The translations under genes and the position numbers were made by a program. The notes below the pieces were generated by a model that searched no databases, was not told where the DNA came from, and saw nothing but the letters and a program-made list of their open reading frames with translations. DNA of 64,000 nt from Oceanococcus sp. GTDB lineage: Bacteria; Pseudomonadota; Gammaproteobacteria; Nevskiales; Oceanococcaceae. The stretch spans positions 497-64,496 of the forward strand of contig JBPOFU010000002.1 of NCBI GenBank assembly GCA_051252075.1, given 5' to 3'. Every line of letters starts with the position of its first letter. Position 1 is the first letter of the stretch. This document shows, piece after piece, positions 40,678 to 58,971 of this stretch.

Positions 40678-41418
40678 TTAGCTGGCTAGCGGCTCATCTT
40701 CTCGCAGCCAAACACAATCACCAGAAGCTTCATGCAAGGCTTGCAGATACGCCGCATGAATATCCTGCTCTTGCGCATTGGCGAGTTGCAGCCGCGGTTG
40801 TAGCCTTGCCGCCGCCATGACTTCGGCCGCAGTACGTTGCGGCCCACCGGTATCTTCTTGGGTGGTGAGCAGCAAAGCGTTTTGCCCACCGGTTAAGCGC
40901 AAGTAAACATCCGCAAGCAACTCCGCATCAAGCAAAGCGCCGTGCAGCTCTCGATTGGAGTTATCAACCTCGTAACGCTTACACAAAGCATCCAAGGAAT
41001 TACGTTGATTGGGATGCTTTTTACGCGCCAGCAGCAAAGAGTCGATAACCTCACCCGCGGGCGGCCAATCACTGCTACGACCGCAGCGCTGATACTCCAC
41101 TTGCAGAAAGCCCATGTCGAACTCGGCGTTGTGAATCACCAAATTTGCATCGCCGATGAACTCTAGGAGTTCATCGGCTATACCTTCAAACCTAGGCTTG
41201 TCGTGCAACTTCTCCATGGTGATGCCGTGTACCGCGGCGGCGCCTTCATCAATGGCACGCCCAGGATTCACATAACGGTGAAATGTACGACCAGTAATGC
41301 GACGATTGATAATCTCTAGGCAGCCCACTTCGATAATGGAATGGTCTTGCGCAGCCAGACCGGTGGTCTCCGTATCCAGCACGATTTCACGCTCGACTTC
41401 GGCTTCAGCTTCACTCAC
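40678..41418 (-). CDS. dnaQ: DNA polymerase III epsilon subunit
   Basis: [48 protein letters not shown]. Confidence 0.98.
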
Positions 41419-41849
41419 TTAAATGGCTCCATGCCTTTACCTGCCAATTCATCGGCCAACTCATTTCCTTCATCGCCACTGTGGCCCTTGACCCAATGCC
41501 AGGACACGTCATGACGCGCAGCTGCGACATCCAGAGCCTGCCATAAATCCTGATTCTTCACGGCCTTACCTGCCGAGGTCTTCCAATTCTTCCGCTTCCA
41601 GTTCGCCATCCATTCAGTAATGCCTTGGCGTAAATAACTGGAGTCGGTATACAGCTCAACTTGGCAAGAACGTTTCAGCGCGTTCAGCGCCTCAATGGCG
41701 GCCTGCATTTCCATCCGATTGTTCGTGGTTTGCGGCGCGCCTCCGCACAACTCGCGGCGTTTGCCCCCGCTGGTGAGATGCGCTCCCCAACCGCCTGGAC
41801 CTGGATTGCCGCTACAGGCTCCATCGGTGTAAATCGTTACGATACTCAT
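41415..41849 (-). CDS. rnhA: Ribonuclease HI
   Basis: [48 protein letters not shown]. Confidence 0.99.
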
Positions 41850-42589
41850 GTACTGGTTTCACTCTCACGAATCGGAACCACGACACGCGCAGCGCCACTG
41901 CGTGTCGGCATACCGACGGTATCCATCCCTGCAGCCGCTTTTCCCCAAATCGGGCGTTGCACGGGACTCATGGGCATACGACGCTTGCGCGCTCGAATCA
42001 AATACACCGGTGCAAACCAATTCAATATCAGCTTCATCCATGGCCAAGATAAGGGGGGCCAGTTACGTTCAGAATGTAGCGGCGAAATGCGCCCATGCTC
42101 CAAAACTTCATAATCCAGCAAACGTAGCCAATCTTGCACTCGCCCATGTCCCAAAGGGCGTACCCCGTCCGGCAAGGCTGGATAGCGCTTCAAAAACCGT
42201 TGGCGCATGCCCCAAACACTCCACGGATTGAAACCCAGAATCAACAACTGCCCACGCGGGCTCAAAATGCGGTCGGTCTCTCGCAGCAGTTGATGCGCAG
42301 ACGGCGCCGATTCCAAGCTATGCGCCAATAGCACGGCGTCGACACTGCGGCTGGCCAAAGGAAGTTGCGATAAATCACAACGAACGTCTACCTTGCCATG
42401 CGGCCCCAGCACGCCGCTGCGCCATTGCGCCTCAACTTGCAGTAGATCTTTCGACCAACAGCCAATTTGCAGCAAACTGCGCCCAAATAAAGCGTCACAA
42501 CTGCTTTTCACCTGCTCGCGCTCTGCGCTGCACAGCGCTTGCCCTCGTGCTGACTGTAGCCAGCTTTCAGTTGCTAAGTGAGTTTTCAT
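41846..42589 (-). CDS. Class I SAM-dependent methyltransferase (YafS-like)
   Basis: LP...[19 protein letters not shown]...G.L...GFNPWS.WG; conserved position between rnhA and gloB. Confidence 0.88.
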
Positions 42590-42633
42590 GCAAAATACGT
42601 CGCCTTGGGTTTATCGGACAGTAAGGACTGTGG

Positions 42634-43404
42634 ATGTTGGACATCACGCCTATCCCCGCGTTTCAGGATAATTATATTTGGGCCATGCACAATGCCGCAG
42701 GCCACTGCGTAGTTGTCGACCCTGGCGATGCAAGTGTCGTGGAAGAGTTTTTACTTGCACACTCATTGCAACTGACCGCCATCCTCATCACCCATCACCA
42801 TTGGGATCATACCGGAGGCTTGGAACAGCTGTGTGCTGCTCGCAATGTACCGGTGTATGGCCCGAAGAACCCGTCAATTAATGGCTTAACCCAAACACTG
42901 GGAGAAGCGGACAGCGTGCTGTTAAGTGACTTCAATCTGCATTTTCAAATATTGGAAGTCCCTGGCCACACTTTGGATCACATTGCCTACTATTCTGAGG
43001 AAACGAATATCCTGTTTTGCGGCGACACCCTATTTCACGGAGGCTGCGGACGTTTGTTTGAAGGAACACCTCAACAAATGCTGGTTTCGCTAAACAAATT
43101 GGCGGCGTTGCCAGCGCAGACCCGAGTGTACTGCACCCACGAATACACCCTGGCCAATCTAACTTTCGCACATGCGGTAGAGCCGAATAATTCCGTGCTG
43201 GCCGAAACCTTGCGAGAAGTTGCTGCGCAGCGTGAGCAGCAGCAAATCACACTACCCAGCCGGATTGATGTGCAAAAACAAATCAATCCCTTTTTACGCA
43301 GCTCAGAAAGTGAAGTAATTCGCACAGCCGAGGCGCGTGGCGCCAATGGCCAAGACCCGAGCTCGGTCTTTCAAACCATTCGAAGCTGGAAAGACAACTT
43401 TTGA
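42634..43404 (+). CDS. gloB: Hydroxyacylglutathione hydrolase (glyoxalase II)
   Basis: PAFQDNYIW, THHHWDHTGG, PGHTLDHI, GDTLF.GGCGRLFEG, C.HEYT..N. Confidence 0.98.
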   Translation: MLDITPIPAFQDNYIWAMHNAAGHCVVVDPGDASVVEEFLLAHSLQLTAILITHHHWDHTGGLEQLCAARNVPVYGPKNPSINGLTQTLGEADSVLLSDFNLHFQILEVPGHTLDHIAYYSEETNILFCGDTLFHGGCGRLFEGTPQQMLVSLNKLAALPAQTRVYCTHEYTLANLTFAHAVEPNNSVLAETLREVAAQREQQQITLPSRIDVQKQINPFLRSSESEVIRTAEARGANGQDPSSVFQTIRSWKDNF

Positions 43405-44849
43405 AACGCATGCCGTGGCAAGCAAGGCACCCAACATCTGTCTTTGCTCTCTTGTTAACACTGGGTTTGGCCTTGATTGGCACACCTGCGGCCGCGGCGG
43501 AAGATTTTTGGCAATGGCTCACCCCGCAAATGACCTTGAGCCAAATCCAACACCCTGAGATTGATCGCTGGGAGGCGCGCTATCGCCGCCGCCACTTAGA
43601 ACTTGAAGTCATATTGGAAGACGGCAAGGATTTTTTGTACCCCCTTGCCCTCGCTGTTGCCGATCGCGACATGCCATTGGAATTGGCGCTACTACCCATT
43701 ATTGAAAGCCATCTTGATCCCGCCGCAGTCTCCGGCAGTGGCGCGCGTGGTTTGTGGCAGTTCTTACCGAAAACGGCCAAGCATCTGGGCCTAAAGCAAG
43801 ATTGGTGGCACAACGAAAGCGCTGATTTCCACCGTTCAACCCAAACCGCTTTGGATTATTTGGACTACCTTCATGACCGCTTTGGCGGCTGGCTGCTGAG
43901 TTTGGCGGCCTACAATGCTGGTGAAGGTCGCATCTGGTCGCTAATGAAAAGCAACCGCAAACGCGGTAAGACCATGGACTATTGGGATTTACCTCTGCCA
44001 CCGCAGACGCAGGTGTACGTCCCCAAACTGCTTGGCTTAGCACGGGTATTACGCGACCCGCAGCACGTACAACTGCCCAAGGTGGCGATGCGGCGCACCC
44101 TCACACGCCTGCAAACACCTATGGCTTTAGATGTTGCACAAATTGCAAAAATGGCGAATATCAGTATCGAGCAGGTATACCGCTTTAATCCGCAATGGCT
44201 GCGCTGGGGCATGCCCCCTACACCACCTCATGCACTCTACTTACCTGTCGAAAGCAGCAAGGTTTTCCGCAGCGCTCTAGTCAAACTGGATAAATCTGCC
44301 GGGCGGAGTTGGCATCAACACAAAGTGAAATCAGGGGAAAGCTTAAGCGCCATCGCCCAAGAGCACGCGACCACAGCGCAGCTCATCCGCCAGCTCAATG
44401 CGCTTTCTGGCGATGCCATTCATCCACAGCAACAGCTCTATCTTGCTCAAGGATCTGCAGAAATTGATGCCGCGACTCGGCAAGCAGTGAGAAGAAGAAC
44501 GCGCCTAGACTTTGCTCCTCGCCCCCTCTCTGCGGGCCTGCACAGGGTCGAGCCTGGCGAATCTCTGTGGAGCATCGCGCGCCGCTATGGCTCCAGCGTG
44601 AAGGCGCTTCAGCGCGCAAATCAGCTAAACCGCCGTTCCGCTCTGGTTCCTGGGCAATTGCTGCAAACCGCATCCATCGATCAACGACAACGCATCACTT
44701 ACACGGTTAAGGCTGGCGATGCCCTGTCTCTAATCGCACAAAAGTACAGCGTCACTGTTTCAGAAATTCAGAAGTGGAATCAATTGGATAGCGCGACTAT
44801 TAGGCCGGGTCAAAAATTGAAATTGCGATTGAGCGCACAGTCTGGATAA
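43401..44849 (+). CDS. mltD: Lytic murein transglycosylase D (SLT domain plus 3 LysM)
   Basis: LPIIES, GA.GLWQF, AAYNAGEGR, ETxxYVPK-like QTQVYVPKL, three LysM repeats (VKSGESLSAIA, VEPGESLWSIA, VKAGDALSLIA). Exact start uncertain. Confidence 0.93.
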   Translation: MKRMPWQARHPTSVFALLLTLGLALIGTPAAAAEDFWQWLTPQMTLSQIQHPEIDRWEARYRRRHLELEVILEDGKDFLYPLALAVADRDMPLELALLPIIESHLDPAAVSGSGARGLWQFLPKTAKHLGLKQDWWHNESADFHRSTQTALDYLDYLHDRFGGWLLSLAAYNAGEGRIWSLMKSNRKRGKTMDYWDLPLPPQTQVYVPKLLGLARVLRDPQHVQLPKVAMRRTLTRLQTPMALDVAQIAKMANISIEQVYRFNPQWLRWGMPPTPPHALYLPVESSKVFRSALVKLDKSAGRSWHQHKVKSGESLSAIAQEHATTAQLIRQLNALSGDAIHPQQQLYLAQGSAEIDAATRQAVRRRTRLDFAPRPLSAGLHRVEPGESLWSIARRYGSSVKALQRANQLNRRSALVPGQLLQTASIDQRQRITYTVKAGDALSLIAQKYSVTVSEIQKWNQLDSATIRPGQKLKLRLSAQSG

Positions 44850-45056: not shown

Positions 45057-45599
45057 ATGGCCCCAGCGCGTGCTGTCATCTTTATACTTTGTTTGCTGAA
45101 TGGATTCGGCGCCGCCTGGAGCAGCGACGAACATCTGCAACAATTACGTCAGTTGGATGAAAACATTCAACAAGTGAAGAAATCCGTTCTCGATTTGGAA
45201 CGCGATCTCAACACCTTTAAACAGGAAACTCTGTTTCCTGAATCGCAGCAATTCAGGCTTTTCCTGACTATGGAGGTGTTTGATTTTGACCTCTCTGCCG
45301 TTCAAGTCAGTGCCAACGGCCAACAATTGGCGAAACACGAATACACCGCACGCGAGATCTATGCGCTGCGTAAGGGTGGCGTCCAAGAGCTATTCCTAGG
45401 CAACATTTCCCCCGGCGTACACACCTTGCAGGCACGCTTTTTAGGCCGCTTTGCTGAATCTGGCGAAACGCCTTATGAAAAACCGATAGAAGTGTCATTT
45501 CGCAAGGGGGCTAAAGCGCAATGGCTGGAGCTACGTATAGACGGCAGCCCAGGGCAACAATTGAGTGTGCGCGTATTCGAGCGGGAAGCTAGCCAATGA
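45057..45599 (+). CDS. Secreted protein (coiled coil plus beta-sandwich), first gene of the TPR-ExbBD-TonB cluster
   Basis: Signal-peptide-like N-terminus, heptad segment, then YT.REIYALRKGGVQ.LFLGN...G.H.L.A.F.G; translationally coupled to the next gene. Confidence 0.85.
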   Translation: MAPARAVIFILCLLNGFGAAWSSDEHLQQLRQLDENIQQVKKSVLDLERDLNTFKQETLFPESQQFRLFLTMEVFDFDLSAVQVSANGQQLAKHEYTAREIYALRKGGVQELFLGNISPGVHTLQARFLGRFAESGETPYEKPIEVSFRKGAKAQWLELRIDGSPGQQLSVRVFEREASQ

Positions 45600-47368
45600 A
45601 GCTATTTCCTTGCATCGGTTTGGCCGCGGCCCTAAGCATGAGCTTCGCAACGCAAGCATACGAACCCGCGATCGGCAGCTTTGATTTCAACCGCGCGCTG
45701 TTCAAACATTACAGTCACGACCATCTCAGTGCCGCTGCAGATGCAGCGTCTTTGCCTGAACAAGACACCAGCACACGCGCCTTCGTAGGCGACAACTTGC
45801 TCAGCTACGGCATGTATATGGAGGCGCAACGTATCCTGCGCCCGCTGTTGGCAGAAGGCACCCTATCCGCTGCCAATCGCGCAGATATCTGGCTAAGTTT
45901 GGCCCGCTACGAATTCGAGCGCGGCTATTTGGATGCCGCAGAAATCACTCTGACGGAAATGCGCGTGGATGTCGGCGCGCGTCGCAACCGCACCGAACGC
46001 AATCAACTATTGGCTGAAATTCAGCTTATTAAGGGGCGCGCTTCAGAAGCTATTGCAACACTGACTGAAGGCCGTACCTACGCCAAATCAGAATTCGCGC
46101 GCTATAACTTGGCCATCGCTTTCTTTGCCGCCGGCAATGTTCGCCGCGGGCGCATAGAAATGGACAAACTGGGCCGCCAAGTGGTCAACGACCCCGTGGA
46201 ACATGCTTTGCGTGATCGTGCCAATTTGGCATTGGCCTACAACTACCTGGCTGAAGCCAAAGGCGCTTCCGCGAAACCGGTGCTACAACGCATACGCCTA
46301 GAAGGCCCCTACTCTGACGAAGCTTTGCTGGGCATGGGTTGGGCAGAAATCGCTGGCGACAAGGCCGATGACATCCGCCTGATAGATAGCGACACAGATG
46401 ACACCATTGGTGGCGTTGTCGGTGCCATTTTACGGCCGGGGCGAATCAATGATGATCTGCGGGCACGCCTGGGCATGCTTAATACCGGCTTAAGTACTGA
46501 CACGATGGACCAACGCTTCCGTAAAGCGCTGGTGCCGTGGCTGGAACTGGATGGCCGCGACCCTAAAAAGCCGGCTGTACTGGAAGTGCAACTGGCCATC
46601 CCTTATGCCCTTGATGCCATAGGTGAAAAAGATCGTGCAAGGCAATTCTACGAACGTGCCGTAAAACGCTTAGAAACGGGTCGCACAGGACTAGACAAGG
46701 CGATGGAAGGGATACTCAGCGGGCGCATGATCGAAACCATGATTCGTCGTGATCGTGACCGTCAAGCGGGCTGGAACTGGCGCCTTCGCGATCTTCCCGA
46801 TGCGCCTGAAACCTATTATCTAGCGGAAGTTCTGGCCGACAGCACATTTCAGGAAGCGCTCAAGAACTACCGTGATTTAAAACAATTGCAGCGTAAGCTT
46901 GCAAGCGACCGCCAACTGTTAGAACAAAGTGGCAGTGGCGCCAATATGGCCAGCGTGCCAGCAGAAGAATTGTTCCGCGCCAAACTGCAGGGGCGGGCGC
47001 CTCTGTGGCAAGGCGTACGCAGCAAATTGAAGCTAGAAACCAACCTCGGTCGCTACCCGCGCAATGAAACATTGGAAGGTTTGCTGGCTTGGACCTACCG
47101 CTACGCTCCGAAAGTTGCGTTGCGAGTCGATGGGTCTCATAGCGCATTTCTACGCGGCCCTGGTCAGGATGCCGTCGCGCTGATGCAGCGCAGCGATGCA
47201 CTATTGCAACAAATAAACCCACTGATTCAGGCACAACGTAAATTGCTAGAAGACATCGCTGTAGCTGGTTTACAAGGGCACAAAGCGATGCTCACGCGCT
47301 ACTTGATTGATGCACGTTTTGCCTTGGCCCGCCTGTACGACGAAGTTGAGGTCGGAGGCGACCGCTGA
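45596..47368 (+). CDS. Secreted TPR protein (GltC-like by position)
   Basis: Signal peptide ending ATQA, TPR-like helical repeats (WLSLARYEFERG, ARYNLAIA, ALLGMGWA). Confidence 0.8.
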   Translation: MKLFPCIGLAAALSMSFATQAYEPAIGSFDFNRALFKHYSHDHLSAAADAASLPEQDTSTRAFVGDNLLSYGMYMEAQRILRPLLAEGTLSAANRADIWLSLARYEFERGYLDAAEITLTEMRVDVGARRNRTERNQLLAEIQLIKGRASEAIATLTEGRTYAKSEFARYNLAIAFFAAGNVRRGRIEMDKLGRQVVNDPVEHALRDRANLALAYNYLAEAKGASAKPVLQRIRLEGPYSDEALLGMGWAEIAGDKADDIRLIDSDTDDTIGGVVGAILRPGRINDDLRARLGMLNTGLSTDTMDQRFRKALVPWLELDGRDPKKPAVLEVQLAIPYALDAIGEKDRARQFYERAVKRLETGRTGLDKAMEGILSGRMIETMIRRDRDRQAGWNWRLRDLPDAPETYYLAEVLADSTFQEALKNYRDLKQLQRKLASDRQLLEQSGSGANMASVPAEELFRAKLQGRAPLWQGVRSKLKLETNLGRYPRNETLEGLLAWTYRYAPKVALRVDGSHSAFLRGPGQDAVALMQRSDALLQQINPLIQAQRKLLEDIAVAGLQGHKAMLTRYLIDARFALARLYDEVEVGGDR

Positions 47369-50265
47369 TGAAATTGAAGCTCAGCATCGCTGCGACTACA
47401 GCCGCTTTTGTAGTGGCTTGTGCCACACCTTACGACCCGAAACAGCATCGCAATATAGAGACCCTGGAACAGGCGCCACCGGATCTGGATGCTTTGCTTC
47501 CACCGCGACGCACGCCAGCGCCAACGGCGGCGCCAGTAGCCAGCAGTCAAACGCAGGCGAAACCGACGCTAGATGATGACTTCGCTGACGTAGGCAAGGC
47601 GCGTAAAGCGGTTGAAAATTACCGCCAAATATTGGAGCTCTCTCCCAACGATCGCGTTGTGAAGTGGGAGGCCCAGCGCCGCCTAGCTGATCTACAAGTC
47701 GAAATCAGTGAACTCGACCCGGAATCGGAAGCCAAAGGCATAGCCAGCACCGAAAATTCCATAGACCTGTACAACAGCTTGCTGGACTCGCGCCCCGACG
47801 ATCCTAACAATGACCGTATTTTGTATCAGCTCGCACGGGCTTATCAGAATACTGGGCAAGTCGGTAAAGCAATCGAGTCACTTGCTGAACTCACACGCAC
47901 TTTCCCTCAGACCACCTTATGGACTGACGCTGAGTTTCGTCGCGCCGAATTGCTTTTTAACCAACGCGACTACGAGCCCGCTGAAATTGCCTACAAGGCG
48001 GTTTTAGACCGCGGCGCAGATGGCAATTACTTTGAACAAGCCCAGTACAAGTATGGCTGGGCTGTATTCAAGCAAGAGCGATACAAGGATTCGCTGGACA
48101 CTTTCATAAGCATTCTTGATCGCGAGCTCCCAGTTGGCGCAGTCGAGAACCTCGACGCCACTTTAGAAGTAGTCCCGCGCGCTCAACGAGAGTTGGTAAC
48201 CGACGTTCTTCGCGTCGTCTCATTAAGCTTTTCCTATCTTGGTGGTGGCACAGCCATAACGGAGTATTTGCAAGGTCGCCCCGTTCGCAGTTTTGAGCCC
48301 GTACTGTATGAAAACCTAGCCAAACTTTTCTTAGAGAAAGGCCGTTTCAATGATGCCGCTCGCAGTTACTCAGGCCTCGCAGAGCGCAGCCCCACACACA
48401 AACTGGCGCCGAAATTTCAGGCCCGTGTCATCGATGTATATGACAAAGCCGGGTTTGCAGATCAAGTACTACAGGCCAAGGTTGACTATGTTGAAAAATA
48501 CGACTTAGACCAAGTCTATTGGAGCGCGCATAGTCCAGAGGACTCACCTGAAGCCTATGAAATGCTGCGTGCCAACATGGACGAGTTAGCGCGGCATTGG
48601 CATACCGGCGCGCAGCAAGCAAAAACACCGGCCGACAAAGCGCGCCTGTTTGGGAAAGCCACGCAAACATATGCACGTTATCTCAATCGCTTTGAAGATG
48701 CCGACAACCGGCCAGAAATGAACTTCCTGCTCGCGGAAGCCTTCTTCCAGAGTGGTAACAACGAGAAAGCGGCGGAAGAATTCAGCCGTACGGCATGGAA
48801 TTACCCCGCACATAAACGCTCTTCGGAAGCCGGCTACGCGGCGGTCTTAGCGCGGCAAAATCTTATTGAAGGTACCCAAGGCGAAGCGCGCGGTCAGCGG
48901 GTTCGCGAATCCGTTGCGACGTCTTTAAAATTCGCAGACAGCTTTGCGGGCCACCCGGAGCAACCCAAAGTGCTGATGCGTGCGGCAGAAGATTTGTACG
49001 CCATCAAGCAAGCTGACCAAGCTATTACCTTGGCAACCCGTGTAACCACCTTGCAATCCACTGCCGCTCAAGCCTTGCAGGCACCAGCATGGACTTTGAT
49101 TGGGTTCGCCCACATGGATCAAAAGCGCTATCCCGAGGCTGAGAAAGGACTCAGTGAAGCGCTGAAGCGGGCACCTGCCCAGAGTGAGCAAGCAACAGAA
49201 TTACGTGACAACCTAGCCAGCGCAATTTATCGCCAAGGTGAGCAGGCCCGCGATGCACAACAATTGGATGTTGCGATTGGCCATTTCCTGCGCGTTAAAC
49301 AAGTTCAACCTGGTGGGAAGTTGGCTGCCGCGGGGGACTTCGATGCGGCCGCTGCATTAATAGAACAAGAAAACTGGTCTCAAGCCGCACAGGTCTTGCT
49401 GAGCTTCCGACAGTCCTATCCTCGCCACGAACTGCAAGCTGAAGTTACGCGCAAATTGGCGGGAATCTACCTGAAAGACGATAAACCGCTGCTCGCCGCT
49501 GCTGAGTTTGAACGTATTGCTCGCAGCCAACCGGAAACAGCGCCAGCGCGCCGAGAAGCGGCCTGGCAAGCAGCCAGTCTGTACGACAAGGCCAAGTCCT
49601 TGGCGCAAGCGGAAACGGCGTATGCGTTCTTCGCGACCACATACACACAGCCGTATGGACAGGTTCTCAAGGCCCATGAACGCTTGATTGAATTGAGCGA
49701 CGCGCGTGGTGACCGAGCGGCCAATCGTGGTTGGTTAAATGCGCTGATCGCACGCGAAAATGCAGCTGGAGCACAGTCCAGCCCGCGTGGCCAAACTTTG
49801 GCCGCTCAGGCCAGCCTGACTCTAGCCAATGATATACGCGGCGGATTTGATCGCCTACGCCTCAGTGCGCCGCTCAATCGCAGCCTTCCAACCAAGAAAG
49901 CGGCTATGGATAAAGCGCTGGCGGCCTACCAAGCAGTCACTCGCTATGCGATTGCCGAATTCACCACAGAAGCGACCTTCCAAATCGGCGAGCTTTACGC
50001 AAATTTCTCAAAAGCTTTGATGAAATCGGAACGACCACGCGGTTTATCGGAGTTGGAGCTGGAGGAGTATCAATTCCTACTGGAAGACCAAGCCTTCCCG
50101 CTAGAGGAAAAAGCCATTGAAGTTCATGCCAGCAACATTGCTCGCACTAAAGACAAGATTTACGACAAATGGGTGCGAGCCAGCTACACATCATTGGCCA
50201 GCTTGCTGCCCGCGCGTTATGGCAAAACCGAGCGTCTAGAGGTGATTCTTGAAACCCTGGATTAA
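47368..50265 (+). CDS. Large TPR lipoprotein (GltD/AgmU-like)
   Basis: Lipobox FVVA-C, numerous TPRs (LYQLARAY, AEFRRAELLF, AQYKYGWAVFKQ), C-terminal ELEEY..LLEDQA.PLEEKAI..H..N. Confidence 0.85.
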   Translation: MKLKLSIAATTAAFVVACATPYDPKQHRNIETLEQAPPDLDALLPPRRTPAPTAAPVASSQTQAKPTLDDDFADVGKARKAVENYRQILELSPNDRVVKWEAQRRLADLQVEISELDPESEAKGIASTENSIDLYNSLLDSRPDDPNNDRILYQLARAYQNTGQVGKAIESLAELTRTFPQTTLWTDAEFRRAELLFNQRDYEPAEIAYKAVLDRGADGNYFEQAQYKYGWAVFKQERYKDSLDTFISILDRELPVGAVENLDATLEVVPRAQRELVTDVLRVVSLSFSYLGGGTAITEYLQGRPVRSFEPVLYENLAKLFLEKGRFNDAARSYSGLAERSPTHKLAPKFQARVIDVYDKAGFADQVLQAKVDYVEKYDLDQVYWSAHSPEDSPEAYEMLRANMDELARHWHTGAQQAKTPADKARLFGKATQTYARYLNRFEDADNRPEMNFLLAEAFFQSGNNEKAAEEFSRTAWNYPAHKRSSEAGYAAVLARQNLIEGTQGEARGQRVRESVATSLKFADSFAGHPEQPKVLMRAAEDLYAIKQADQAITLATRVTTLQSTAAQALQAPAWTLIGFAHMDQKRYPEAEKGLSEALKRAPAQSEQATELRDNLASAIYRQGEQARDAQQLDVAIGHFLRVKQVQPGGKLAAAGDFDAAAALIEQENWSQAAQVLLSFRQSYPRHELQAEVTRKLAGIYLKDDKPLLAAAEFERIARSQPETAPARREAAWQAASLYDKAKSLAQAETAYAFFATTYTQPYGQVLKAHERLIELSDARGDRAANRGWLNALIARENAAGAQSSPRGQTLAAQASLTLANDIRGGFDRLRLSAPLNRSLPTKKAAMDKALAAYQAVTRYAIAEFTTEATFQIGELYANFSKALMKSERPRGLSELELEEYQFLLEDQAFPLEEKAIEVHASNIARTKDKIYDKWVRASYTSLASLLPARYGKTERLEVILETLD

Positions 50266-50839
50266 ACACAGTTGCAGCGTATTGCTCATCGCCAGCTTAT
50301 CGGCGTGCTCGCTTATGCCTAAAGGCGAACCTGCGGTCGAAGCAGGATTGAGCACCAAACCCAAAGTGCAATTGCCTGAGGACTACACAGCGGCACTGAA
50401 TCTTATGCAGGCGGAACGCTGGGGGCCAGCTGAATCCGCGTTGAAGGCCTATGCAGCACGTAAACCTTCGCAAAGCAGTCCGCATGTGAATCTCGCGTTG
50501 CTCTACCGCAAAACACAACGCGATGACTTGGCTATGGCCTCCATAGACAAGGCACTAGAGATCAATCCCAAACAAGCTGCCGCTTTCAACCTACGCGGCG
50601 TTTATGCTAGAGAAGCCGGTGACTTTGGCGCGGCCCAGCAAGCCTACTTGGCGGCCATCGCTGCCGACCCACAGTATCCGAATGCTTATCTGAACATGGC
50701 CATTTTGCAGGACCTCTACTTGCACAACCCCAGCTCAGCCCTGCGCATGTACGAAGGCTATGCCGCCCTCGTCGGTGACGACAATGTCGATCAAACTGTA
50801 AAAAGTTGGATTGCTGACGCAAAAAGACAAGCCCGGTAA
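50249..50839 (+). CDS. TPR lipoprotein (GltE/AglT-like)
   Basis: Lipobox LSA-C; TPRs HVNLALLYR, AFNLRGVYARE.G.F..A...Y, AYLNMAILQDLY. Confidence 0.85.
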   Translation: MKPWIKHSCSVLLIASLSACSLMPKGEPAVEAGLSTKPKVQLPEDYTAALNLMQAERWGPAESALKAYAARKPSQSSPHVNLALLYRKTQRDDLAMASIDKALEINPKQAAAFNLRGVYAREAGDFGAAQQAYLAAIAADPQYPNAYLNMAILQDLYLHNPSSALRMYEGYAALVGDDNVDQTVKSWIADAKRQAR

Positions 50840-50844
50840 TCGCT

Positions 50845-51162
50845 ATGACTACTCATTTTTATTGCGGCGCAACAAAACGCGTTCTACACTATGCGACAGT
50901 TGCACTGGCAGCACTTAGTTTTAGCAGCGCATTTGCTCAGTCGGCGAATGAACCTGTTGAGGTCGGTGGCACCACCATTATTGGTGACCGTGAGCTACCG
51001 ATAGGCCTATACATTTCACCGTGGCGCAGTGCGACCCCGGGCGAAGAAATGGATAAGCCTTCACGTTATTTGGATGTAGGCACACAGCCTTTAGATCCTG
51101 AAGTTTTTCGGCGTCAAGTGGAATACCTTGACGCATTGGATGCCGCGGCGCGGCGTAAATAG
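50845..51162 (+). CDS. Small secreted protein (GltF/CglF-like by position)
   Basis: Signal peptide ending SAFA; G.TIIGDRELP.GLYI.PW and P.D.EVFRRQ.EY motifs. Confidence 0.75.
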   Translation: MTTHFYCGATKRVLHYATVALAALSFSSAFAQSANEPVEVGGTTIIGDRELPIGLYISPWRSATPGEEMDKPSRYLDVGTQPLDPEVFRRQVEYLDALDAAARRK

Positions 51163-51181
51163 TCATTTTTAAGGAAAGATC

Positions 51182-51877
51182 ATGGAATTCATGACAGTCG
51201 TTGCGCGCTTCTTCCAAGACGGGGGCGCATTTATGTATCCCATCGTGGTGATGTTGGTTTTAGGCTTAGCTATTGCGATCGAAAGAACGCTGTATTTGCG
51301 CACCACCCGAGTGAGCAATCGAAAAATCTGGGAAGCCGTTGCCCCACTGGTTTCACAAGGTCGCTACGATGCCGCATTGGCGCAAACCGAAGAGTCAAAC
51401 GGTGCCTTGGCCCGGGTCCTTAGCTATGGCTTGGCGCGCATTAAAACAGCGAGTCGCCGGGAAGACCTGGAAATGGCGATGGAAGAAAGCATGATGGAAG
51501 TGCTGCCGCAGCTGGAACGCCGCACCCCTTTCCTGCAAGTGTTTGCCAATGTCGCAACCCTGCTGGGCCTGCTCGGCACCATCATCGGTTTGATTCATGG
51601 CTTTAGTGCGGTTGCCAACGCCAACCCGGCTGAAAAAGCCAATATGCTGTCCGCTTCTATTTCAGTTGCTATGAACACCACGGCATTCGGTTTGATGTGC
51701 GCCATTCCGCTGCTGCTTATTCATGCGTGGCTGCAGGCTAAAACCACTGAAATGGTCGACACTTTGGAAATGACCACGGTGAAGTTCCTCAATCAGTTCA
51801 CAGAAATCCGCAACGCCGCAGGCAACCCGACCAAACCGACTCCTCAAGCTGCTGCTCAACAGCCGCAACAAGTCTGA
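51182..51877 (+). CDS. MotA/TolQ/ExbB proton-channel protein (AglR-like)
   Basis: GG.FM.PI, A.AIER, ANVATLLGLLGTIIGLI..F, ISVAMNTTAFGL..AIP. Confidence 0.95.
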   Translation: MEFMTVVARFFQDGGAFMYPIVVMLVLGLAIAIERTLYLRTTRVSNRKIWEAVAPLVSQGRYDAALAQTEESNGALARVLSYGLARIKTASRREDLEMAMEESMMEVLPQLERRTPFLQVFANVATLLGLLGTIIGLIHGFSAVANANPAEKANMLSASISVAMNTTAFGLMCAIPLLLIHAWLQAKTTEMVDTLEMTTVKFLNQFTEIRNAAGNPTKPTPQAAAQQPQQV

Positions 51878-51885
51878 GTTAGGCC

Positions 51886-52401
51886 ATGAAAGCCCGCTGG
51901 CGCCGTCACCGCCTCCGCCATCAGGAACCGGCGGAGATGAACATTACCGCCTTCATGAATTTGATGGTGATTCTGGTTCCGTTTTTGCTGATCACGGCTG
52001 TTTTCTCACGCCTGGCTGTTTTGGAACTGGACCTTCCCAGCCCAAACAGCGAACCCAGTGAAGAAGACCCAAAACAGAAACTCACTATTGTTGTGCGTGA
52101 AGATGGCATCACGGTGAACGACCGTGGTGGGCTCATCAAAACCATTTCGAAGGTGGCTGGCAGTTACAACCTGCAAGCGCTTACGGATCTGATGGTCGTG
52201 GTGAAAAACAAAGTCCCGCAAGAGACCAGCGCAACTTTGCTGCTGGAGCCCGATATCGAATACGACACAGTCATCCAAGTCATGGATGCCGTACGCATTG
52301 CCAAGGCAGCGCACACCGGCGATACCAAGGATCGAGAATTGTTCCCTGCAATCGCTTTAGGTGACGCTCCGGCCGCCACGAATCAGGAGCCGAATTCGTG
52401 A
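51886..52401 (+). CDS. ExbD/TolR family protein 1 (TM Asn instead of Asp)
   Basis: TM MNITAFMNLMVILVPFLL; periplasmic LEPDIEYDTVIQVMDAVR. Confidence 0.9.
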   Translation: MKARWRRHRLRHQEPAEMNITAFMNLMVILVPFLLITAVFSRLAVLELDLPSPNSEPSEEDPKQKLTIVVREDGITVNDRGGLIKTISKVAGSYNLQALTDLMVVVKNKVPQETSATLLLEPDIEYDTVIQVMDAVRIAKAAHTGDTKDRELFPAIALGDAPAATNQEPNS

Positions 52402-52916
52402 AGCAAACTCGTCGCGCTCATCGCATGGAAGTGAGAGCTCATCGCAAAAATGCTGGCGGCTCCATGAATCTGGTGTCCTTAATGGACATCTTTACCATCC
52501 TGGTATTTTTCCTGTTGGCACAATCTGCGGCAGTAGAAGTGCTGCCGAATACAGACAAGCTGGAGCTGCCGACGTCTTTAGCCGAAGAACATGCGCGTGA
52601 AACCGTGCTCATCATGGTGACGTCCGAGGACATTTTGGTAAATGGCCAGTCCGCCATGAAGACGTCAGAAGCCTTGCGCAGCAGCGATTTATCCGCGCTA
52701 CAAACGGCGCTGGAAGCACAAGCCCAACGCATCGTAAAAGTGGGTGATGGCGACGAGAACGATCGCGGTGAAGTCACCATCATGGCGGATAAAGGTTTAC
52801 CTTACTCGCTGTTGAAAAAGGTCATGTTGGCCTGCACCAAAGCACAATATGGCTTGCTCTCCTTTGCCGTTTTGCAAAAAGATCAAAACACCGTACAACT
52901 GGGAGAAAATGAGTGA
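52398..52916 (+). CDS. ExbD/TolR family protein 2 (TM Asp retained)
   Basis: TM MNLVSLMDIFTILVFFLL; IMADKGLPYSLLKKVMLAC. Confidence 0.92.
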   Translation: MKQTRRAHRMEVRAHRKNAGGSMNLVSLMDIFTILVFFLLAQSAAVEVLPNTDKLELPTSLAEEHARETVLIMVTSEDILVNGQSAMKTSEALRSSDLSALQTALEAQAQRIVKVGDGDENDRGEVTIMADKGLPYSLLKKVMLACTKAQYGLLSFAVLQKDQNTVQLGENE

Positions 52917-53905
52917 CCAGTGTCGCTTTTTCCCGCAACAGTTGGGCTGAGCTCGAACGCGATGAAGCACGTTTTCAACGCACTTTGCTGCTCGTCGCAG
53001 TCCCATTTCTTCTATTAAGCATCCTAATCCCCTTGTGGGAACTGGCTGGTTTAAAAGAGGGCGGCGGCGAAGAACTGTCTGAGCGTTACGCCGAACTACT
53101 CATGCAATCGGCGGCCAAACAAGAATCTCCCGCACCGGAACCTGCCACGGTAGAAGAACCTGCGGATGAACCTGAGCCAGAACCGGAAGCTGAGCCAGAA
53201 TCCGCGCCAGAGCAAGCTGAACCCGAAGTCAAACCCGATCCCAAACCGGAACCAGTTCAACAGGTTGATGCACGTGAACAGGCACGCGAAAAAGTACAAA
53301 AGAAATTCGCCAGCGCTTTCAACGCCTTAGATTCCCTGCGCGAACAAGCACCGGTCATTACCGCAAGCAATCGGCCGCTAACGCAAGCCAGCAGTTCCAG
53401 CGAAGACGTCAGTGATGCCAGCAGCGGTGTACTGACCTCCAACCTAAGCAAAGGCAGCGGCGGTGTCGGCGCAGCGCCAACACGCAGCACACGCCCCAAT
53501 ACAACAGGGTTGAAAGGTCGTCAGACCACCAAGGTTGACTCCGGCATTACCGCCAGTGGCGGCGGTTACGGCGCGGATAACAAGGAAGCAGGCTTTGGCG
53601 GTGACAGCCGCTTGCAAGGACGCTCGCTGGAAGAAATCCAAATCGTTATGGATCGCAACAAGAGTGGTTTGTACTCCCTGTACAACCGCGCCCTACGCAG
53701 CGATGCCACTTTGCAAGGCAAAGTCGTACTGGAAATCACCATCTCACCTTCCGGTGCGGTGACCAGTTGCCGTGTTGCATCCAGTCAACTGGCGAACAAA
53801 GCTTTGGAAGATCGCATAGTCAGGCGCGTGAAGTTGATCAACTTCGGGGCTAAAGCGGTGTCAGAAATGACTATCAAGTACCCGATTCACTTCATTCCCA
53901 GCTAG
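52913..53905 (+). CDS. TonB-like energy transducer (AgmX/PglI/GltG C-terminal domain)
   Basis: Single N-terminal TM, Glu-Pro-rich spacer, Gly-rich segment, C-terminal LYNRALR..ATLQGKVVLEITISPSGAV...V..S.L....E....FG..A. Confidence 0.88.
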   Translation: MTSVAFSRNSWAELERDEARFQRTLLLVAVPFLLLSILIPLWELAGLKEGGGEELSERYAELLMQSAAKQESPAPEPATVEEPADEPEPEPEAEPESAPEQAEPEVKPDPKPEPVQQVDAREQAREKVQKKFASAFNALDSLREQAPVITASNRPLTQASSSSEDVSDASSGVLTSNLSKGSGGVGAAPTRSTRPNTTGLKGRQTTKVDSGITASGGGYGADNKEAGFGGDSRLQGRSLEEIQIVMDRNKSGLYSLYNRALRSDATLQGKVVLEITISPSGAVTSCRVASSQLANKALEDRIVRRVKLINFGAKAVSEMTIKYPIHFIPS

Positions 53906-54441: not shown

Positions 54442-54539
54442 TAAATTAATCAGAGTCCAGTATCTGGATGGTTAGCGTGTCCACGGTCACGCTAACACAA
54501 ACAGATTCGGACTCGAAGATCCTAAATCCGGAGATCACC

Positions 54540-57500
54540 GTGCGTCATACTTTGCAATTGCTCACCCCTATCGTAGGCTTTTCTCTAGCACTGTTTAGTG
54601 CGCACGGCTACACGGCAGAGCCAGCTAGTGGCAATGTGAGCGCGGAATCGCCCAGCACCGAGTTCGACTCGGGACCACACACGATTTCCAATCCATCCTA
54701 CCCGGACGCAGGCACCTGCCAAGAGCCTACCTTCCCGTGCGATGACTATGCATTGACCGTACAGGTACCCGGCTCCGGCGAGCAAGCAATCCTCACCGTG
54801 AGCACAGTGGTTCCTGATGCAGATGACTACGACATTTATTTGCTGGATAGCGATGGCAATGAAATCACCAGTTCCGCTAGCGGTGATGCGGTAGAGGTCA
54901 TGACGCTACCGATCAACACATCCGGCGATCACAATTACACCGTGCGCATCATTCCTTTCTTGGCCACAGCCACGACAGCGACCACCAAAATTGAGCTGAC
55001 TTTCGTTGCAGGCAGCGGTGGCTCGGCCGGTGGCGGCGATGGCAGTGGCACTGGCGGCATAGATCGTGGAGAGCTGCCCTTCGACCCCACCGCACCGCGT
55101 TACAGTATCTATGTATCACCTGCGAATGAAGGCAACGACGCCGGTGAACCAACGGTGGGCTACAACCCGCTCACCGAACGCGCCATGTTTATTTCCTACG
55201 TCAACGCACTGCGTGTGACCTTTCCAGAAAACCTGGATGAGCCCCTGCCACAAGCCTGCGATGCGCTGTGGGAAAACAAATCAGGCTTGATCACGACGCT
55301 AAATTCACTTGATCCGATTATGTACACCGATAAAACCACCGGCCGTACTTTTAATTCTCAGTTGGCCGGCGCGAATAGTTTGTTCGAGTTCTCAGATGAC
55401 GATGGTGAGTCTTGGACCCCTGGCCAAATCGGCTTGCCCAATGGTGGCGCAGATCACCAAGGCGTTGTTTCTGGCCCTTATCCAGATGCTTTGCCCATAG
55501 GCGGCATCCTATTCCCGAATGCCGTGTACTACTGCTCTCAGTCGGTTGCTTCTGCATTCTGTGCCCGCAGTGATGATGGCGGCCAAACCTTTGGCCCCGG
55601 CATGCCGTTCAAAAACACCGACTGCTCGGCTGGTGGCTTGCATGGTCATCCAAAGGTCGCACCTGACGGCACTTTGTATATTCCTGATAGCTCCCAATGT
55701 GTGCTTACCACTGGCGTCGACGGCAGTGCAGACAAGATCGTGGCCTTTGTCAGCGAAGATGCTGGGGCAACTTATGACGTTCGCCCTCTGCCCGACAGCC
55801 AAGGTGGCGCAGGCTCTGATCCCTCCATCGGTATTGCCACCGATGGAACAGCCTATATGTGCTATGAAAACGCGGATGGCACGTCCCGCGTGGCGGTTTC
55901 ACATGACAAAGGTTTAACTTGGGAAAATGACCAAGATATCGGCCTCGCTGCCGGTTTAGTCGCGACCCGCTTCCAAGCCGCCGTGGCTGGCGATCCTGAT
56001 CGCGCAGCCTGCGCATTTTTGGGCACATCATCCGTCGGTCCAGATTTAGAACTCAGCTTTGAAGGCGTCTGGTACCCCTATATCGCCACTACCTATGATG
56101 GCGGCGAAACCTGGCAGTTGGTGAATCTCAGCCCGGGCAATCCGGTTCAAGGTTTTGGTGGCGTCGGCACCAGCGGTACAAACCGCAACTTGCTCGACTT
56201 CAATGATTTGGAATTGGACAACTTGGGTCGCCCGCTGTTCGCCTACGCCGATGGTTGCGTTGGTGGTTGTGAGCGTGACCCGGCCGCCAATGGTTTTGCT
56301 GCCAAGGCCACTTTGGCACGTCAATCTGGCGGGCTGACCTTACTGGCTGAATTCGACAATCTTGCCAATAGCCAACTTACGACAGCGCAACTGGCTCCAG
56401 CCGCTGCTTGCGCATTGCAAGATAAAAGTTCACGCACGGTGAACCAAACTGTCGTTGCTTGGCGCGCCCCCGACAACGGCGGCACTCCCATCAGCAATTA
56501 TCAGGTCTACCGCGCCACTCAAGCGCAAGGGCCGTTTGAATTCATCGGTGATGCTGGCAGCAAGACCACCTTTGTCGATACGTCTTCAGACGTCAGCGTT
56601 GCCGAATACTCCTACCGCGTTGTTGCTCAGAACGCCGTTGGAGACGCTGGCCAATCCAATGTCGTGACATTGCCAATTCAAACGCAAACCGAAGTTGATA
56701 CCTGCCACCTGCCTGGGGAAATCATATTGCTCGACTCAGCCGGAGATAGTGCTGGGGTCGATGATTACGACATTATTTCCGCAGCGGTCGCAGAGCCAGC
56801 CGAATTCCCGGGCAGCTTGGCGATTACTTTGAAATTGGCCAATTTTACCACCGGAGCGCCTCCGGCAACCTCGTTTTACCCGATTTTGTTCCCACTGCTG
56901 AACAATCGTTACATTGCATTCGATGCAAGCAGTGCACCGCGCTTTGTCTACGGCACTACGACAGAAGGCCCGCAGGGTCTACTCATCTTTACAGAAGAGG
57001 GTGAGCTTGATCCCGCCAGCAGCTATGGTGCAGATGGGACAGTGGTATTGATTGCCGACAAAGCTCTCTTTGGCAAGAGCACTGGTGATTTGTTGGCCGG
57101 TTTTGACATTCGTGCACGCGCTGGCTCAGCAACAGCTACCAGCCGTGATACCGCAGGGCCAGGGGAATATGAGCTTCGTGGTCATGAAAATTGTGGCGCT
57201 GTTGACGCGGCCCCCTTGCTGGCCACGCTCGCCGGTAGCACGCAATCAGGAAATGCCCCACTGACTGTAGACTTTGTCATCTCTGGTGCGTCCAGCGAAA
57301 GCACGCTCACGAGCTGGTCTTTGGACTTCGGCGACGGCCAATTTGTCGAAGAACAAAGTTTTGGCAGTGCTAGCAACGCTGAAATAACCCACGTCTACCA
57401 AGAAGCTGGGGTTTTCCGTGCACGCGCCACGGTGAAGAACAGTGAAGGTCAGGTCAGCGAGAATTTGGCCGAGCACACCGTGACTGTCGATCCTGAAGAC

Positions 57501-57623
57501 ACCACGGGCGGCGATGGTGGTGATGCAGGCAACCCTGGCCCCAGTGCGCAGCGTGGCGGCTCCTTAGGCGGCGGTTTCCTCATGCTGCTGATGCTGCCTC
57601 TGCTGCGGCGCCGTCGCAGCTAA
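54540..57623 (+). CDS. Surface protein: PPC-like domain, Asp-box (BNR) beta-propeller, FN3, PKD, GlyGly-CTERM anchor
   Basis: GTG start after GGAG and signal peptide; five Asp boxes (SDDDGESW, SDDGGQTF, SEDAGATY, SHDKGLTW, TYDGGETW); FN3 W.AP.NGG.PI.NY.VYR; PKD WSLDFGDG..H.Y...G; C-terminal GGSLGGGFLMLLMLPLLRRRRS. Confidence 0.88.
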   Translation: MRHTLQLLTPIVGFSLALFSAHGYTAEPASGNVSAESPSTEFDSGPHTISNPSYPDAGTCQEPTFPCDDYALTVQVPGSGEQAILTVSTVVPDADDYDIYLLDSDGNEITSSASGDAVEVMTLPINTSGDHNYTVRIIPFLATATTATTKIELTFVAGSGGSAGGGDGSGTGGIDRGELPFDPTAPRYSIYVSPANEGNDAGEPTVGYNPLTERAMFISYVNALRVTFPENLDEPLPQACDALWENKSGLITTLNSLDPIMYTDKTTGRTFNSQLAGANSLFEFSDDDGESWTPGQIGLPNGGADHQGVVSGPYPDALPIGGILFPNAVYYCSQSVASAFCARSDDGGQTFGPGMPFKNTDCSAGGLHGHPKVAPDGTLYIPDSSQCVLTTGVDGSADKIVAFVSEDAGATYDVRPLPDSQGGAGSDPSIGIATDGTAYMCYENADGTSRVAVSHDKGLTWENDQDIGLAAGLVATRFQAAVAGDPDRAACAFLGTSSVGPDLELSFEGVWYPYIATTYDGGETWQLVNLSPGNPVQGFGGVGTSGTNRNLLDFNDLELDNLGRPLFAYADGCVGGCERDPAANGFAAKATLARQSGGLTLLAEFDNLANSQLTTAQLAPAAACALQDKSSRTVNQTVVAWRAPDNGGTPISNYQVYRATQAQGPFEFIGDAGSKTTFVDTSSDVSVAEYSYRVVAQNAVGDAGQSNVVTLPIQTQTEVDTCHLPGEIILLDSAGDSAGVDDYDIISAAVAEPAEFPGSLAITLKLANFTTGAPPATSFYPILFPLLNNRYIAFDASSAPRFVYGTTTEGPQGLLIFTEEGELDPASSYGADGTVVLIADKALFGKSTGDLLAGFDIRARAGSATATSRDTAGPGEYELRGHENCGAVDAAPLLATLAGSTQSGNAPLTVDFVISGASSESTLTSWSLDFGDGQFVEEQSFGSASNAEITHVYQEAGVFRARATVKNSEGQVSENLAEHTVTVDPEDTTGGDGGDAGNPGPSAQRGGSLGGGFLMLLMLPLLRRRRS

Positions 57624-57677: not shown

Positions 57678-57716
57678 TGTTGAAAGCAAATGCTCAATAG
57701 CAAGGTCTTGATCAGT

Positions 57717-58223
57717 ATGAATAAGCAAAAACGCTTTGAGGCGCTGGTCGAGGGCCATTCCAGCGCCCTCTACCGCTACGCCTACTGGTTATGCGATGGC
57801 CACAAAACCAATGCAGAAGACGTGGTGCAAGAAACCTTTCTTCGTGCTTGGAAATCGCTAGAGCAACTGCAAGAGCACCAAGCGGCTAAAGCGTGGTTGA
57901 TGACCATCTTGAGACGGGAAAATGCACGCCGCTTTGAACGTAAACAATTTGACTACGTAGATGTAGAGCTCGATAGCGTGAGCTTAGACGAACAGCAATT
58001 GGAACGGCACATGGATAGCCATGAACTGCGCCGCGCCATTGCACAACTGGAACCGAAATACCGCGAACCCCTATTGATGCAAGCCATAGGTGGGTTCTCC
58101 TGCGAGGAGATCGCCGAGACCATGGACATCAACAAAGGTGCGGTTATGACTCGCCTGTTTCGAGCGAAGAAATTGCTGAGCTCGCAAATGACACAAGATA
58201 CTAAGGACCAGCGCCATGGATGA
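57717..58223 (+). CDS. ECF sigma-70 factor
   Basis: LYRYAYWL, AEDVVQETFLRAW, AWLMTILRRE, L..L..KYREPL.MQ..GGFSCEEIA, V.TRLFRA. Start set at ATG 57717. Confidence 0.95.
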   Translation: MNKQKRFEALVEGHSSALYRYAYWLCDGHKTNAEDVVQETFLRAWKSLEQLQEHQAAKAWLMTILRRENARRFERKQFDYVDVELDSVSLDEQQLERHMDSHELRRAIAQLEPKYREPLLMQAIGGFSCEEIAETMDINKGAVMTRLFRAKKLLSSQMTQDTKDQRHG

Positions 58224-58971
58224 ACTCGAAATGCGCCGGCGCTGCATTGCGGCCCCCAACGATCCCGATCCGGCCTACCAAGAGTGGCTGAATCAACACC
58301 CCGGCGCCAAAGGCGTCGCTCTACAAGCCCGCCACTTTGATGAACGCTTACGATTCGCCCTGCAAGATGTGGACATCCCTGACGGTTTGAATGGACGTAT
58401 TTTGCTTGGCAGCAGCTTGCGCACTCCGCGCCGCAGTCGGCAGCGCTGGCTAGCGGGCTTCGCGGTAGCGGCCTCGGTGTTAATCAGTGTTGGCCTGTGG
58501 TTCAACCCCAGCCCTAGCGTTGCAGGAGGGTTCCAACAGCTGGCCTTGAATCATGTGTACGACGAAATCCACCATTTTGAGCACCCGTCTGGTGGCATCT
58601 CTGACAGCATGGTCAGCAATCTGTTTCAACAAGTCGGTGGCCAGCTCAAGGGCAGTTTAGGCGACATCAAATTCGCCTTCATGTGTCCCACCCCAAGCGG
58701 GGAAGGCTTGCACTTGGTTGCCGACAATTCAGCGGGGCGTGTCACCGTACTGTATGTACCCAATGCCAGCAAAGGCACTCAGGCCGTAGCATTCGCCGAT
58801 GAGCGCTTCCGTGGCAGCACGCTGCTACCGGCTGCCGGCGGAGCCTTGGCCATTATCGGAGAGAACCCCCAAGCCGTTGAGCTGATGGAACAAGCTCTGG
58901 ATGAAGCAGTTCAGTGGCAAACCTCTAATCTGGCCACTGATACCTGGGAGCACTCATATTTCGCCGTTTAA
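58216..58971 (+). CDS. DUF3379 family putative anti-sigma factor
   Basis: MDELE.RRR..A.PND, FD..L..AL..V.IPDGL..RILL, single TM (FAVAASV), periplasmic H..E and CP...GLHLV; overlaps the sigma gene. Confidence 0.85.
   Translation: MDELEMRRRCIAAPNDPDPAYQEWLNQHPGAKGVALQARHFDERLRFALQDVDIPDGLNGRILLGSSLRTPRRSRQRWLAGFAVAASVLISVGLWFNPSPSVAGGFQQLALNHVYDEIHHFEHPSGGISDSMVSNLFQQVGGQLKGSLGDIKFAFMCPTPSGEGLHLVADNSAGRVTVLYVPNASKGTQAVAFADERFRGSTLLPAAGGALAIIGENPQAVELMEQALDEAVQWQTSNLATDTWEHSYFAV

Follow-up and report, generated by a model that had tools for sequence, protein, structure and literature searches.

An asparagine/aspartate pair of ExbD/TolR paralogues conserved in a gammaproteobacterial operon of the Agl-Glt core-complex type

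Current models of the MotAB, ExbBD, TolQR, and AglRQS motors have two equivalent aspartates taking turns, and replacing this Asp with Asn is the standard way of inactivating them. In the rotary models, each proton moves the machine on by 36 degrees, alternately through one Asp and the other (10.1101/2024.10.08.617233). Among the described systems closest to the one studied here is the 'core complex' formed by aglR, aglQ, and aglS together with gltD, gltE, gltG, gltC, and one extra gene, which has been found as an operon in several Gammaproteobacteria (PMC3169522) and is regarded as ancestral to the Myxococcus gliding machinery (PMC3169522, Luciano et al. 2011). The Group A genes (gltA, B, F, H, I, J, K) are confined to Myxococcales and Bdellovibrionales (PMC3169522). 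Here we analyzed a 64,000-nucleotide stretch of Oceanococcus sp. (contig JBPOFU010000002.1, positions 497 to 64,496; below, the window, in whose coordinates positions are given), which carries on its forward strand a nine-gene operon spanning 45057 to 53905. Two adjacent genes of the operon encode paralogues of the ExbD/TolR family, and these differ in the residue at the conserved transmembrane (TM) aspartate.

The first paralogue, which we call AglQ-like (171 aa, 51886-52401, + strand, starting MKARWRRHRLRHQEPAEMNITAFMNLMVILVPFLL), and the second, called AglS-like (172 aa, 52398-52916, + strand, with a GTG start and containing SMNLVSLMDIFTILVFFLL), both match PF02472, at 2e-16 (60.6 bits) and 1.5e-14 (54.6 bits), respectively, the gathering threshold being 25.4. 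The two proteins are 32% identical over 108 aligned residues in BLASTP, where their TM helices align with N25 facing D30, and in the profile of the Asn family, the Asn column corresponds to Asp25 of the solved ExbD chains 7ajq_F and 6tyi_Y ("nitafmnLm" vs. "NVTPFIDVM"). Read directly from the DNA, the codons are AAT for Asn25 (51958-51960, + strand) and GAC for Asp30 (52485-52487, + strand). The sequence-only reading of this region had placed Asn25 opposite Asp30 at the ExbD Asp25 column, and codons, BLASTP, and the profile against solved ExbD all bear it out. The TM Asp conserved in the family (ExbD D25, TolR D23) is absent from the AglQ-like subunit, which has Asn25, and present in the AglS-like one as Asp30; the window's genome contains seven ExbD-family genes, and the five canonical ones all carry Asp (TPMLD or VPYID).

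The asymmetry of the pair is complementary, as the Asn subunit retains an acidic residue eight positions upstream of the site (Glu17; E/D in 80/81) that is gone from the Asp subunit. Pro32 is conserved in the Asn subunit, and both paralogues lack the Pro found ahead of the Asp in canonical ExbD/TolR proteins (TPxxD or VPxxD). The frames of the two genes overlap by GTGA at the AglQ-like stop and AglS-like start (52398-52401), and the same overlap joins the AglS-like stop to the start of the following GltG-like gene (52913-52916), an arrangement that fits coupled translation.

The TM helix of the AglQ-like subunit, NITAFMNLMVILVPFLLITAVF, is near-invariant among orthologues. The closest homologues, the best 120 from a collection of 5.8 billion proteins and reaching down to ~50% identity, had Asn in 120/120 cases, within an almost invariant helix. 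We compared 80 genome loci from Oceanococcus, Woeseiaceae, Steroidobacteraceae, Chromatiales, Thiohalobacter, Lentisalinibacter, and others, and found Asn25 in 81/81 orthologues and the partner Asp30 in 78/78, with near-fixed stretches at residues 26-40 (Asn helix) and 29-39 (Asp helix). A profile search over 1.84 billion cluster representatives at 50% identity returned 274 clusters at E ≤ 1e-30; in the best 150 of these plus the window's own protein (151 rows), the site residue was N in 140, S in 3, and D in 8. Sampling 400 gammaproteobacterial species evenly, we found the AglQ-like gene in 77 genomes and in 62 of the 321 genera, and the most divergent members of that sample (35-40% identity) still had Asn. 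The Asn was encoded among orthologues by AAC (80) and AAT (44) and the partner Asp by GAT (69) and GAC (57); as both Asn codons occur, the residue appears to be kept by selection and not by recent common descent. The sequence-only reading had asked whether the Asn is conserved across orthologous operons or whether orthologues carry Asp, and the 81/81 and 78/78 counts answer for conservation. These comparisons show an asymmetry that is native and ancient and that strong purifying selection maintains.

For 85 products of the first and second genes, taken from Gammaproteobacteria and Myxococcota, we computed a maximum-likelihood tree with the five canonical ExbD/TolR proteins of the genome as the root, and it separated the two genes: every second gene, all with Asp, fell in an AglS clade (SH-aLRT 96) and every first gene in an AglQ clade (SH-aLRT 89). 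Within the AglQ clade, the gliding-type Myxococcota AglQ (Asp, NLVPFIDLL; support 98) was sister to a group (99) holding the gammaproteobacterial Asn proteins along with two Myxococcota Asn sets and one small Myxococcota Asp set. By this position, the window's Asn protein is an AglQ orthologue, and as the AglS side of the tree has the same shape as the AglQ side, the paralogues have co-diverged. The Myxococcota part of the comparison covered 151 genomes of the phylum to which Cystobacter belongs, from which 30 loci were fetched. Gliding-type pairs among them were Asp/Asp; in 8 of the 30 loci, LNMVPIMNLF (Asn) was followed by LNLTSMMDMF (Asp), and wherever longer flanks were read, these Asn/Asp loci adjoined AglR-, GltD-, GltE-, and GltG-like genes. 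The rooting suggests that Asp was ancestral and that Asn arose early in a nongliding branch; since the relevant nodes are weakly supported, both a single origin followed by reversions and several origins are possible.

Departures from the Asn/Asp state were few. Ser took the place of Asn in three cluster representatives, one of which could be located in the same operon with an Asp partner. On a metagenomic contig (L281, 4001-5025), a Ser/Asp pair, VTAFLSLMVILVPFLL followed by LNLVAMMDVFTILVFFLL, sits in an otherwise typical operon, and a Sel1-repeat gene follows it. Operons of the gammaproteobacterial type with an Asp/Asp pair occurred in the genus g179 (two species; L222 2172-3185 and L238 2386-3408) and on a related metagenomic contig (L284 3001-4085). 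The first gene of the g179 type has retained its periplasmic domain and, in the helix, the end ITAVFSR, and the first 18 residues of its TM region match those of its partner at 16/18 positions (LNLVPLIDIFTVLVFFLL vs. LNLIPLIDVFTVLVFFLL). This suggests either an old gene conversion or a convergent reversion, and with a nucleotide identity of only ~72%, the two are indistinguishable. Another metagenomic Asp/Asp lineage has the helix motif NIVPMLDVM. The second subunit was Asp in every system examined, and to judge by these natural sequences, the system tolerates Asp/Asp, Asn/Asp, and Ser/Asp. One further metagenomic contig (L285, 1976-3974) contains three pieces: a 125-aa open reading frame (ORF) that corresponds to the Asn paralogue minus the TM helix, an ORF fusing an Asp-type TM to an Asn-type periplasmic domain, and part of the Asp paralogue. 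We take it for either an operon in rearrangement and decay or an artefact of assembly and set it aside from the comparisons.

The pentamer protein co-varies with the state of the pair in our alignments, in which AglR-like proteins were aligned by group and to solved TolQ. In the window, the AglR-like channel subunit of the MotA/TolQ/ExbB family, presumed to form a pentamer (51182..51877, + strand; PF01618, 1.3e-28), has TolQ 8odt_A as its nearest solved structure (3.2e-11) and keeps Thr133 (TolQ T145 column), Thr167 (T178 column), Pro176, and Gly residues. At the column of TolQ Glu173 it has Val162, and the nearby residue 166 is Thr. Position 162 was V, I, L, or T in 35/35 Asn/Asp systems and Glu in 15/15 Myxococcota Asp/Asp systems. 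Position 166 was Thr in 33/35 Asn/Asp systems and in the Ser/Asp system; in the Asp/Asp lineages it was Cys in the gliding type, Asn in the second Myxococcota type, Cys in g179 and its relative, and Asn in the NIVPMLDVM lineage, a pattern expected if AglR 166 contacts residue 25 of the AglQ-like subunit. TM3 of the AglR-like protein is, moreover, unusually polar and conserved (S157, S159, S161, N165, T166, T167). With the TM3 Glu lost from the pentamer and Asn25 in the first subunit, Asp30 of the AglS-like subunit is the sole carboxylate remaining in the membrane core.

By gene content and orthology, the locus as a whole is a gammaproteobacterial Agl-Glt core complex of nine genes. The sequence-only reading had spoken of an ExbD pair and of ExbB; the genes do not make up an ExbB/ExbD/TonB uptake set, and their affinities are with AglR/AglQ/AglS and the Glt-type core complex (PMC3169522). 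Scores against the NCBIfam equivalogs for TolQ, TolR, ExbB, ExbD, and TonB, which would mark a TonB-ExbB-ExbD uptake system or a Tol-Pal system, all fell far under the cut-offs (score/cut-off: tolQ 58.5/221, tolR 38.8/127, exbB 34.2/206, ExbD 23/123-216). The components that define the core complex were found, namely AglR and AglQ/AglS orthologues, on which the rooted tree and phmmer best matches agree, and GltD-, GltE-, and GltG-like genes linked in the operon, GltE being recognized only below the cut-off. No Group A gliding gene lies within the operon, the only part of the genome searched for them.

The GltG-like protein (330 aa, GTG start, 52913..53905, + strand) has an N-terminal TM helix, a Pro/Glu-rich linker, and a TonB_C / AgmX-PglI C-terminal domain, and it matches NF033768 above the cut-off (7.7e-19), TIGR01352 at 2.2e-9, and, below the cut-off, gliding_GltG (1.7e-9). 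The GltD/AgmU-like protein (965 aa, 47368..50265, + strand), conserved across the loci, matches many tetratricopeptide repeat (TPR) families and a Cystobacter protein, and the GltE-like TPR lipoprotein (196 aa, 50249..50839, + strand) matches TPR families and, below the cut-off, the NCBIfam model gliding_GltE (7.9e-9). A 590-aa protein (45596..47368, + strand) has weak TPR matches and a constant place, and is a candidate GltC counterpart by position only. The operon begins with orf180, encoding a secreted protein of 180 aa (45057..45599, + strand) with neither a Pfam nor an NCBIfam match; its stop overlaps the next start, and homologues stand directly 5' of the first TPR gene in 50 related loci. 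A small secreted protein of 105 aa, orf105 (50845..51162, + strand), gave no family match in the Pfam and NCBIfam scans, holds its place in essentially all loci, and is probably the 'additional gene' of the nonmyxobacterial core complex; PMC3169522 describes a single extra gene for core complexes outside the deltaproteobacteria.

The operon assignment was tested on the genome of Cystobacter fuscus, found with an MglA query. There, the best matches of the GltD-like and GltG-like proteins were a 1238-aa and a 660-aa ORF lying 5 kb apart on one strand, and the second-best matches were likewise linked; two linked pairs are as expected for the Glt and Nfs clusters. Across the 80 loci, the order of the eight genes from the 590-aa TPR protein to the GltG-like protein was constant wherever the contig extends, and the hosts were mostly marine or saline gammaproteobacteria. 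Three operon-bearing contigs (L022, L031, and L053) are labelled 'Halobacteria archaeon', 'Acidobacteria bacterium', and 'Rhodospirillaceae bacterium', probably owing to binning or labelling errors in metagenome-assembled genomes and not to true transfers.

We think it probable, with considerable room for doubt, that the two paralogues form a heterologous 'plug' of the AglQ/AglS type in an AglR5:AglQ1:AglS1 core-complex motor that operates with a single carboxylate. Five AglR-like subunits would surround one AglQ-like and one AglS-like TM helix, a 5:1:1 stoichiometry that we infer from the homologues, and the complex would drive the GltG-like protein of TonB/TolA type and by way of it the envelope's TPR proteins. 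Asn25 would stay neutral throughout, hydrogen-bonding to the Thr ring (Thr133, Thr166, Thr167) as a protonated Asp does, with ion binding and release taking place at Asp30 alone. The motor might then spend one ion per two 36-degree steps (72 degrees), every second step being undriven, or it might pull on the GltG-like protein by a reciprocating stroke and reset instead of turning as a symmetric alternating-site rotor. In either form, the single-site stroke is something we only infer.

Several points weigh against such a motor. The D25N mutant of E. coli ExbD is inactive and dominant-negative (10.1101/2022.09.26.509584), and in M. xanthus, AglQ D28N stops proton conductance and leaves the machinery paralysed (PMC3858216, PMC9120999), besides blocking sporulation (PMC3858216). 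Homodimeric N2 and D2 complexes may also be compatible with the sequences of the gammaproteobacterial system. The covariation with the pentamer, finally, spans only 3-4 independent lineages (2-3 contrasts), too few for significance. Since both D25N and D28N are dead, a mixed Asp/Asn pair fails in a canonical pentamer, and the gammaproteobacterial system would need compensating changes; AglR positions 162 and 166 are candidates for such adaptations, as are the new Pro32 and, in both helices, the missing Pro ahead of the site. Later literature credits the AglQ D28N experiment to Sun et al. 2011 (PNAS).

The rival that survives best, though we hold it unlikely, is that two kinds of complexes exist: an active AglR5:(AglS-like)2 with two Asp and a nonconducting AglR5:(AglQ-like)2 whose plug serves in regulation, anchoring, or shutting the channel. 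The asymmetry would then lie between complexes and not inside one. ExbD, TolR, and MotB are usually homodimers, ExbD D25N still homodimerizes and binds ExbB (10.1101/2022.09.26.509584), and heterodimerization is not forced by any feature of the sequences. However, the two paralogues have existed and diverged side by side from a time before the gammaproteobacterial and Myxococcota versions parted, the genes are always adjacent, with overlapping frames in the window, and AglR 166 varies with the residue at the first subunit's site, as one would expect of a subunit in the working channel. In M. xanthus, a mutation in any one of aglR, aglQ, and aglS severely impairs sporulation (PMC3858216), and AlphaFold gives a robust prediction for the Myxococcus homologues only as AglR5QS-GltG, that is, with the heterodimer (PMC11761067). 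The heterodimer put forward in the sequence-only reading thus stands as the most plausible arrangement, given that the paralogues always co-occur and co-diverge, that their genes overlap by GTGA in the window, and that an AglR5:AglQ:AglS model has been published (PMC11761067). The obligate character of the heterodimer, the single conducting site, and the ratchet or half-stroke of that reading are proposals that may hold; it had not taken in the accompanying changes of the pentamer (TM3 Glu lost, Thr at 166) or the few lineages that have gone back to Asp/Asp.

Less probable still is that the Asn subunit is fully ion-competent through an altered ion or path, so that both subunits continue to alternate. 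Conceivable forms, for which there is little support, are Na+ on Asn25 with a ring of Asn165, Thr166, Thr167, and Ser, or a proton passing via water and Glu17 at the cytoplasmic end of the helix. The unusually polar, conserved TM3 of the AglR-like protein, the mostly marine or saline hosts, and the acid at -8, kept in the Asn subunit (80/81) and absent from the Asp subunit, would all suit this explanation. Yet an acid near -8 is also found in the genome's canonical ExbD genes and in the solved ExbD chains and so does not make a new compensating site; Glu17 was rejected as a compensating acid on that ground. The replacement of Asn by Ser in some systems is hard to reconcile with a specific ion ligand, and we know of no stator with Asn as the ion site. 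The last rival, that the Asn arose by mutation in this strain alone, by sequencing error, or in a gene decaying into a pseudogene, was dropped as having next to no chance of being right: AAT and GAT differ by one A/G transition, but Asn recurs in 81/81 orthologues and 140/151 rows, in two codons and an invariant TM helix, and the ORF is intact in a conserved operon.

The surroundings of the operon contain genes of other kinds. On its 5' side (40678-44849) lie genes for an RNase T/DnaQ-like exonuclease, a methyltransferase, a GloB-like hydrolase, and an MltD-like lytic transglycosylase (SLT and three LysM domains). The transglycosylase AgmT couples the Myxococcus machinery to peptidoglycan. The gene neighborhood at 40678-44849 resembles the dnaQ-gloB-mltD region of E. 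coli, and by this resemblance, the MltD-like transglycosylase probably stands outside the motor operon. On the 3' side, 54468-57623 (+ strand) encodes a secreted protein of 1051 aa with BNR/sialidase-like, fn3, and PKD domains that closes with a Gly-rich stretch, a hydrophobic helix, and the end RRRRS (GGSLGGGFLMLLMLPLLRRRRS). This C-terminus looks like a GlyGly-CTERM or PEP-CTERM sorting signal, although it matched no NCBIfam model. Directly 3' of it, an ECF (extracytoplasmic function) sigma factor gene is followed by a DUF3379 gene with overlapping frames (57690-58971, + strand), probably a sigma/anti-sigma pair. Elsewhere in the genome, contigs C1, C159, and C188 each carry a MotA/ExbB-family protein of 451-462 aa, an ExbB-like protein of 173-187 aa, and a canonical ExbD, in a TonB2/TtpC-like arrangement; the genome thus has several conventional Ton-type motors beside the Agl-type one.

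More broadly, but only tentatively, the operon may represent a large and ancient single-carboxylate branch of the 5:2 motors, present in about a fifth of the sampled gammaproteobacterial genomes and in some Myxococcota, in which an Asp helix is paired with a fixed neutral Asn helix inside a pentamer lacking the TM3 Glu. If a motor of this kind is active, the rotary mechanism can do without alternating protonation of two Asp. One machine would then exist in two mechanistic grades, the Asp/Asp gliding motor of Myxococcus and the Asn/Asp core complex, with AglR 166 (Thr vs. Cys/Asn) as a tuning contact. Already known are the operon type (2011) and the proposal of a heterodimeric AglQ/AglS plug (2025). 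In the searchable literature, we found no mention of a native Asn, or of loss of the Asp, in ExbD/TolR/AglQ paralogues, nor of the parallel loss of the pentamer TM3 Glu, the Asp/Asp revertants, or the Ser variants. Together with the natural Asp/Asp revertants, the Ser variants, and the matched changes of the pentamer, the conserved natural pair would offer a ready-made "one-site" 5:2 motor on which to ask directly whether a second site is required and what either site contributes, and it names the residues to swap: AglQ 25, AglS 30, AglR 162, and AglR 166. It also opens a first molecular way into the gammaproteobacterial core complex, which is widespread in bacteria of marine sediment and water.

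Compared with known systems, the locus shares its Pfam families with the ExbB5-ExbD2 and TolQ5-TolR2 motors (PDB 6tyi, 7ajq, 8odt), which are its nearest solved structures, and like them has a TonB/TolA-like partner, the TM2 and TM3 Thr, and the TM3 Pro. Whereas the plugs of the Ton and Tol-Pal systems are homodimers with two Asp, the plug proteins here are diverged paralogues, one of them without a carboxylate, and the pentamer has no Glu at the TolQ E173 column. In structural work on the flagellar stators MotA5-MotB2 and PomA5-PomB2, an engineered Asp-to-Asn change is used as a protonation mimic. These stators belong to the same superfamily and the substitution is the same, at the same position of the helix, but there the Asn is artificial, inactivating, and present in both copies, whereas here it is natural, conserved, and confined to one copy. 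The locus also resembles the AglR-AglQ-AglS gliding/sporulation motor and the Agl-Glt machinery of M. xanthus, with which the operon shares its gene set: TPR proteins of the GltD and GltE type, AglR, two ExbD/TolR paralogues, and a GltG-like protein. In the Myxococcus gliding type, however, AglQ and AglS both have Asp, and AglR has the TM3 Glu and Cys166, in contrast to the Asn, Val162, and Thr166 found here. The residue that kills the Myxococcus motor when introduced as AglQ D28N (PMC3858216) is, in this gammaproteobacterial operon, the native state.

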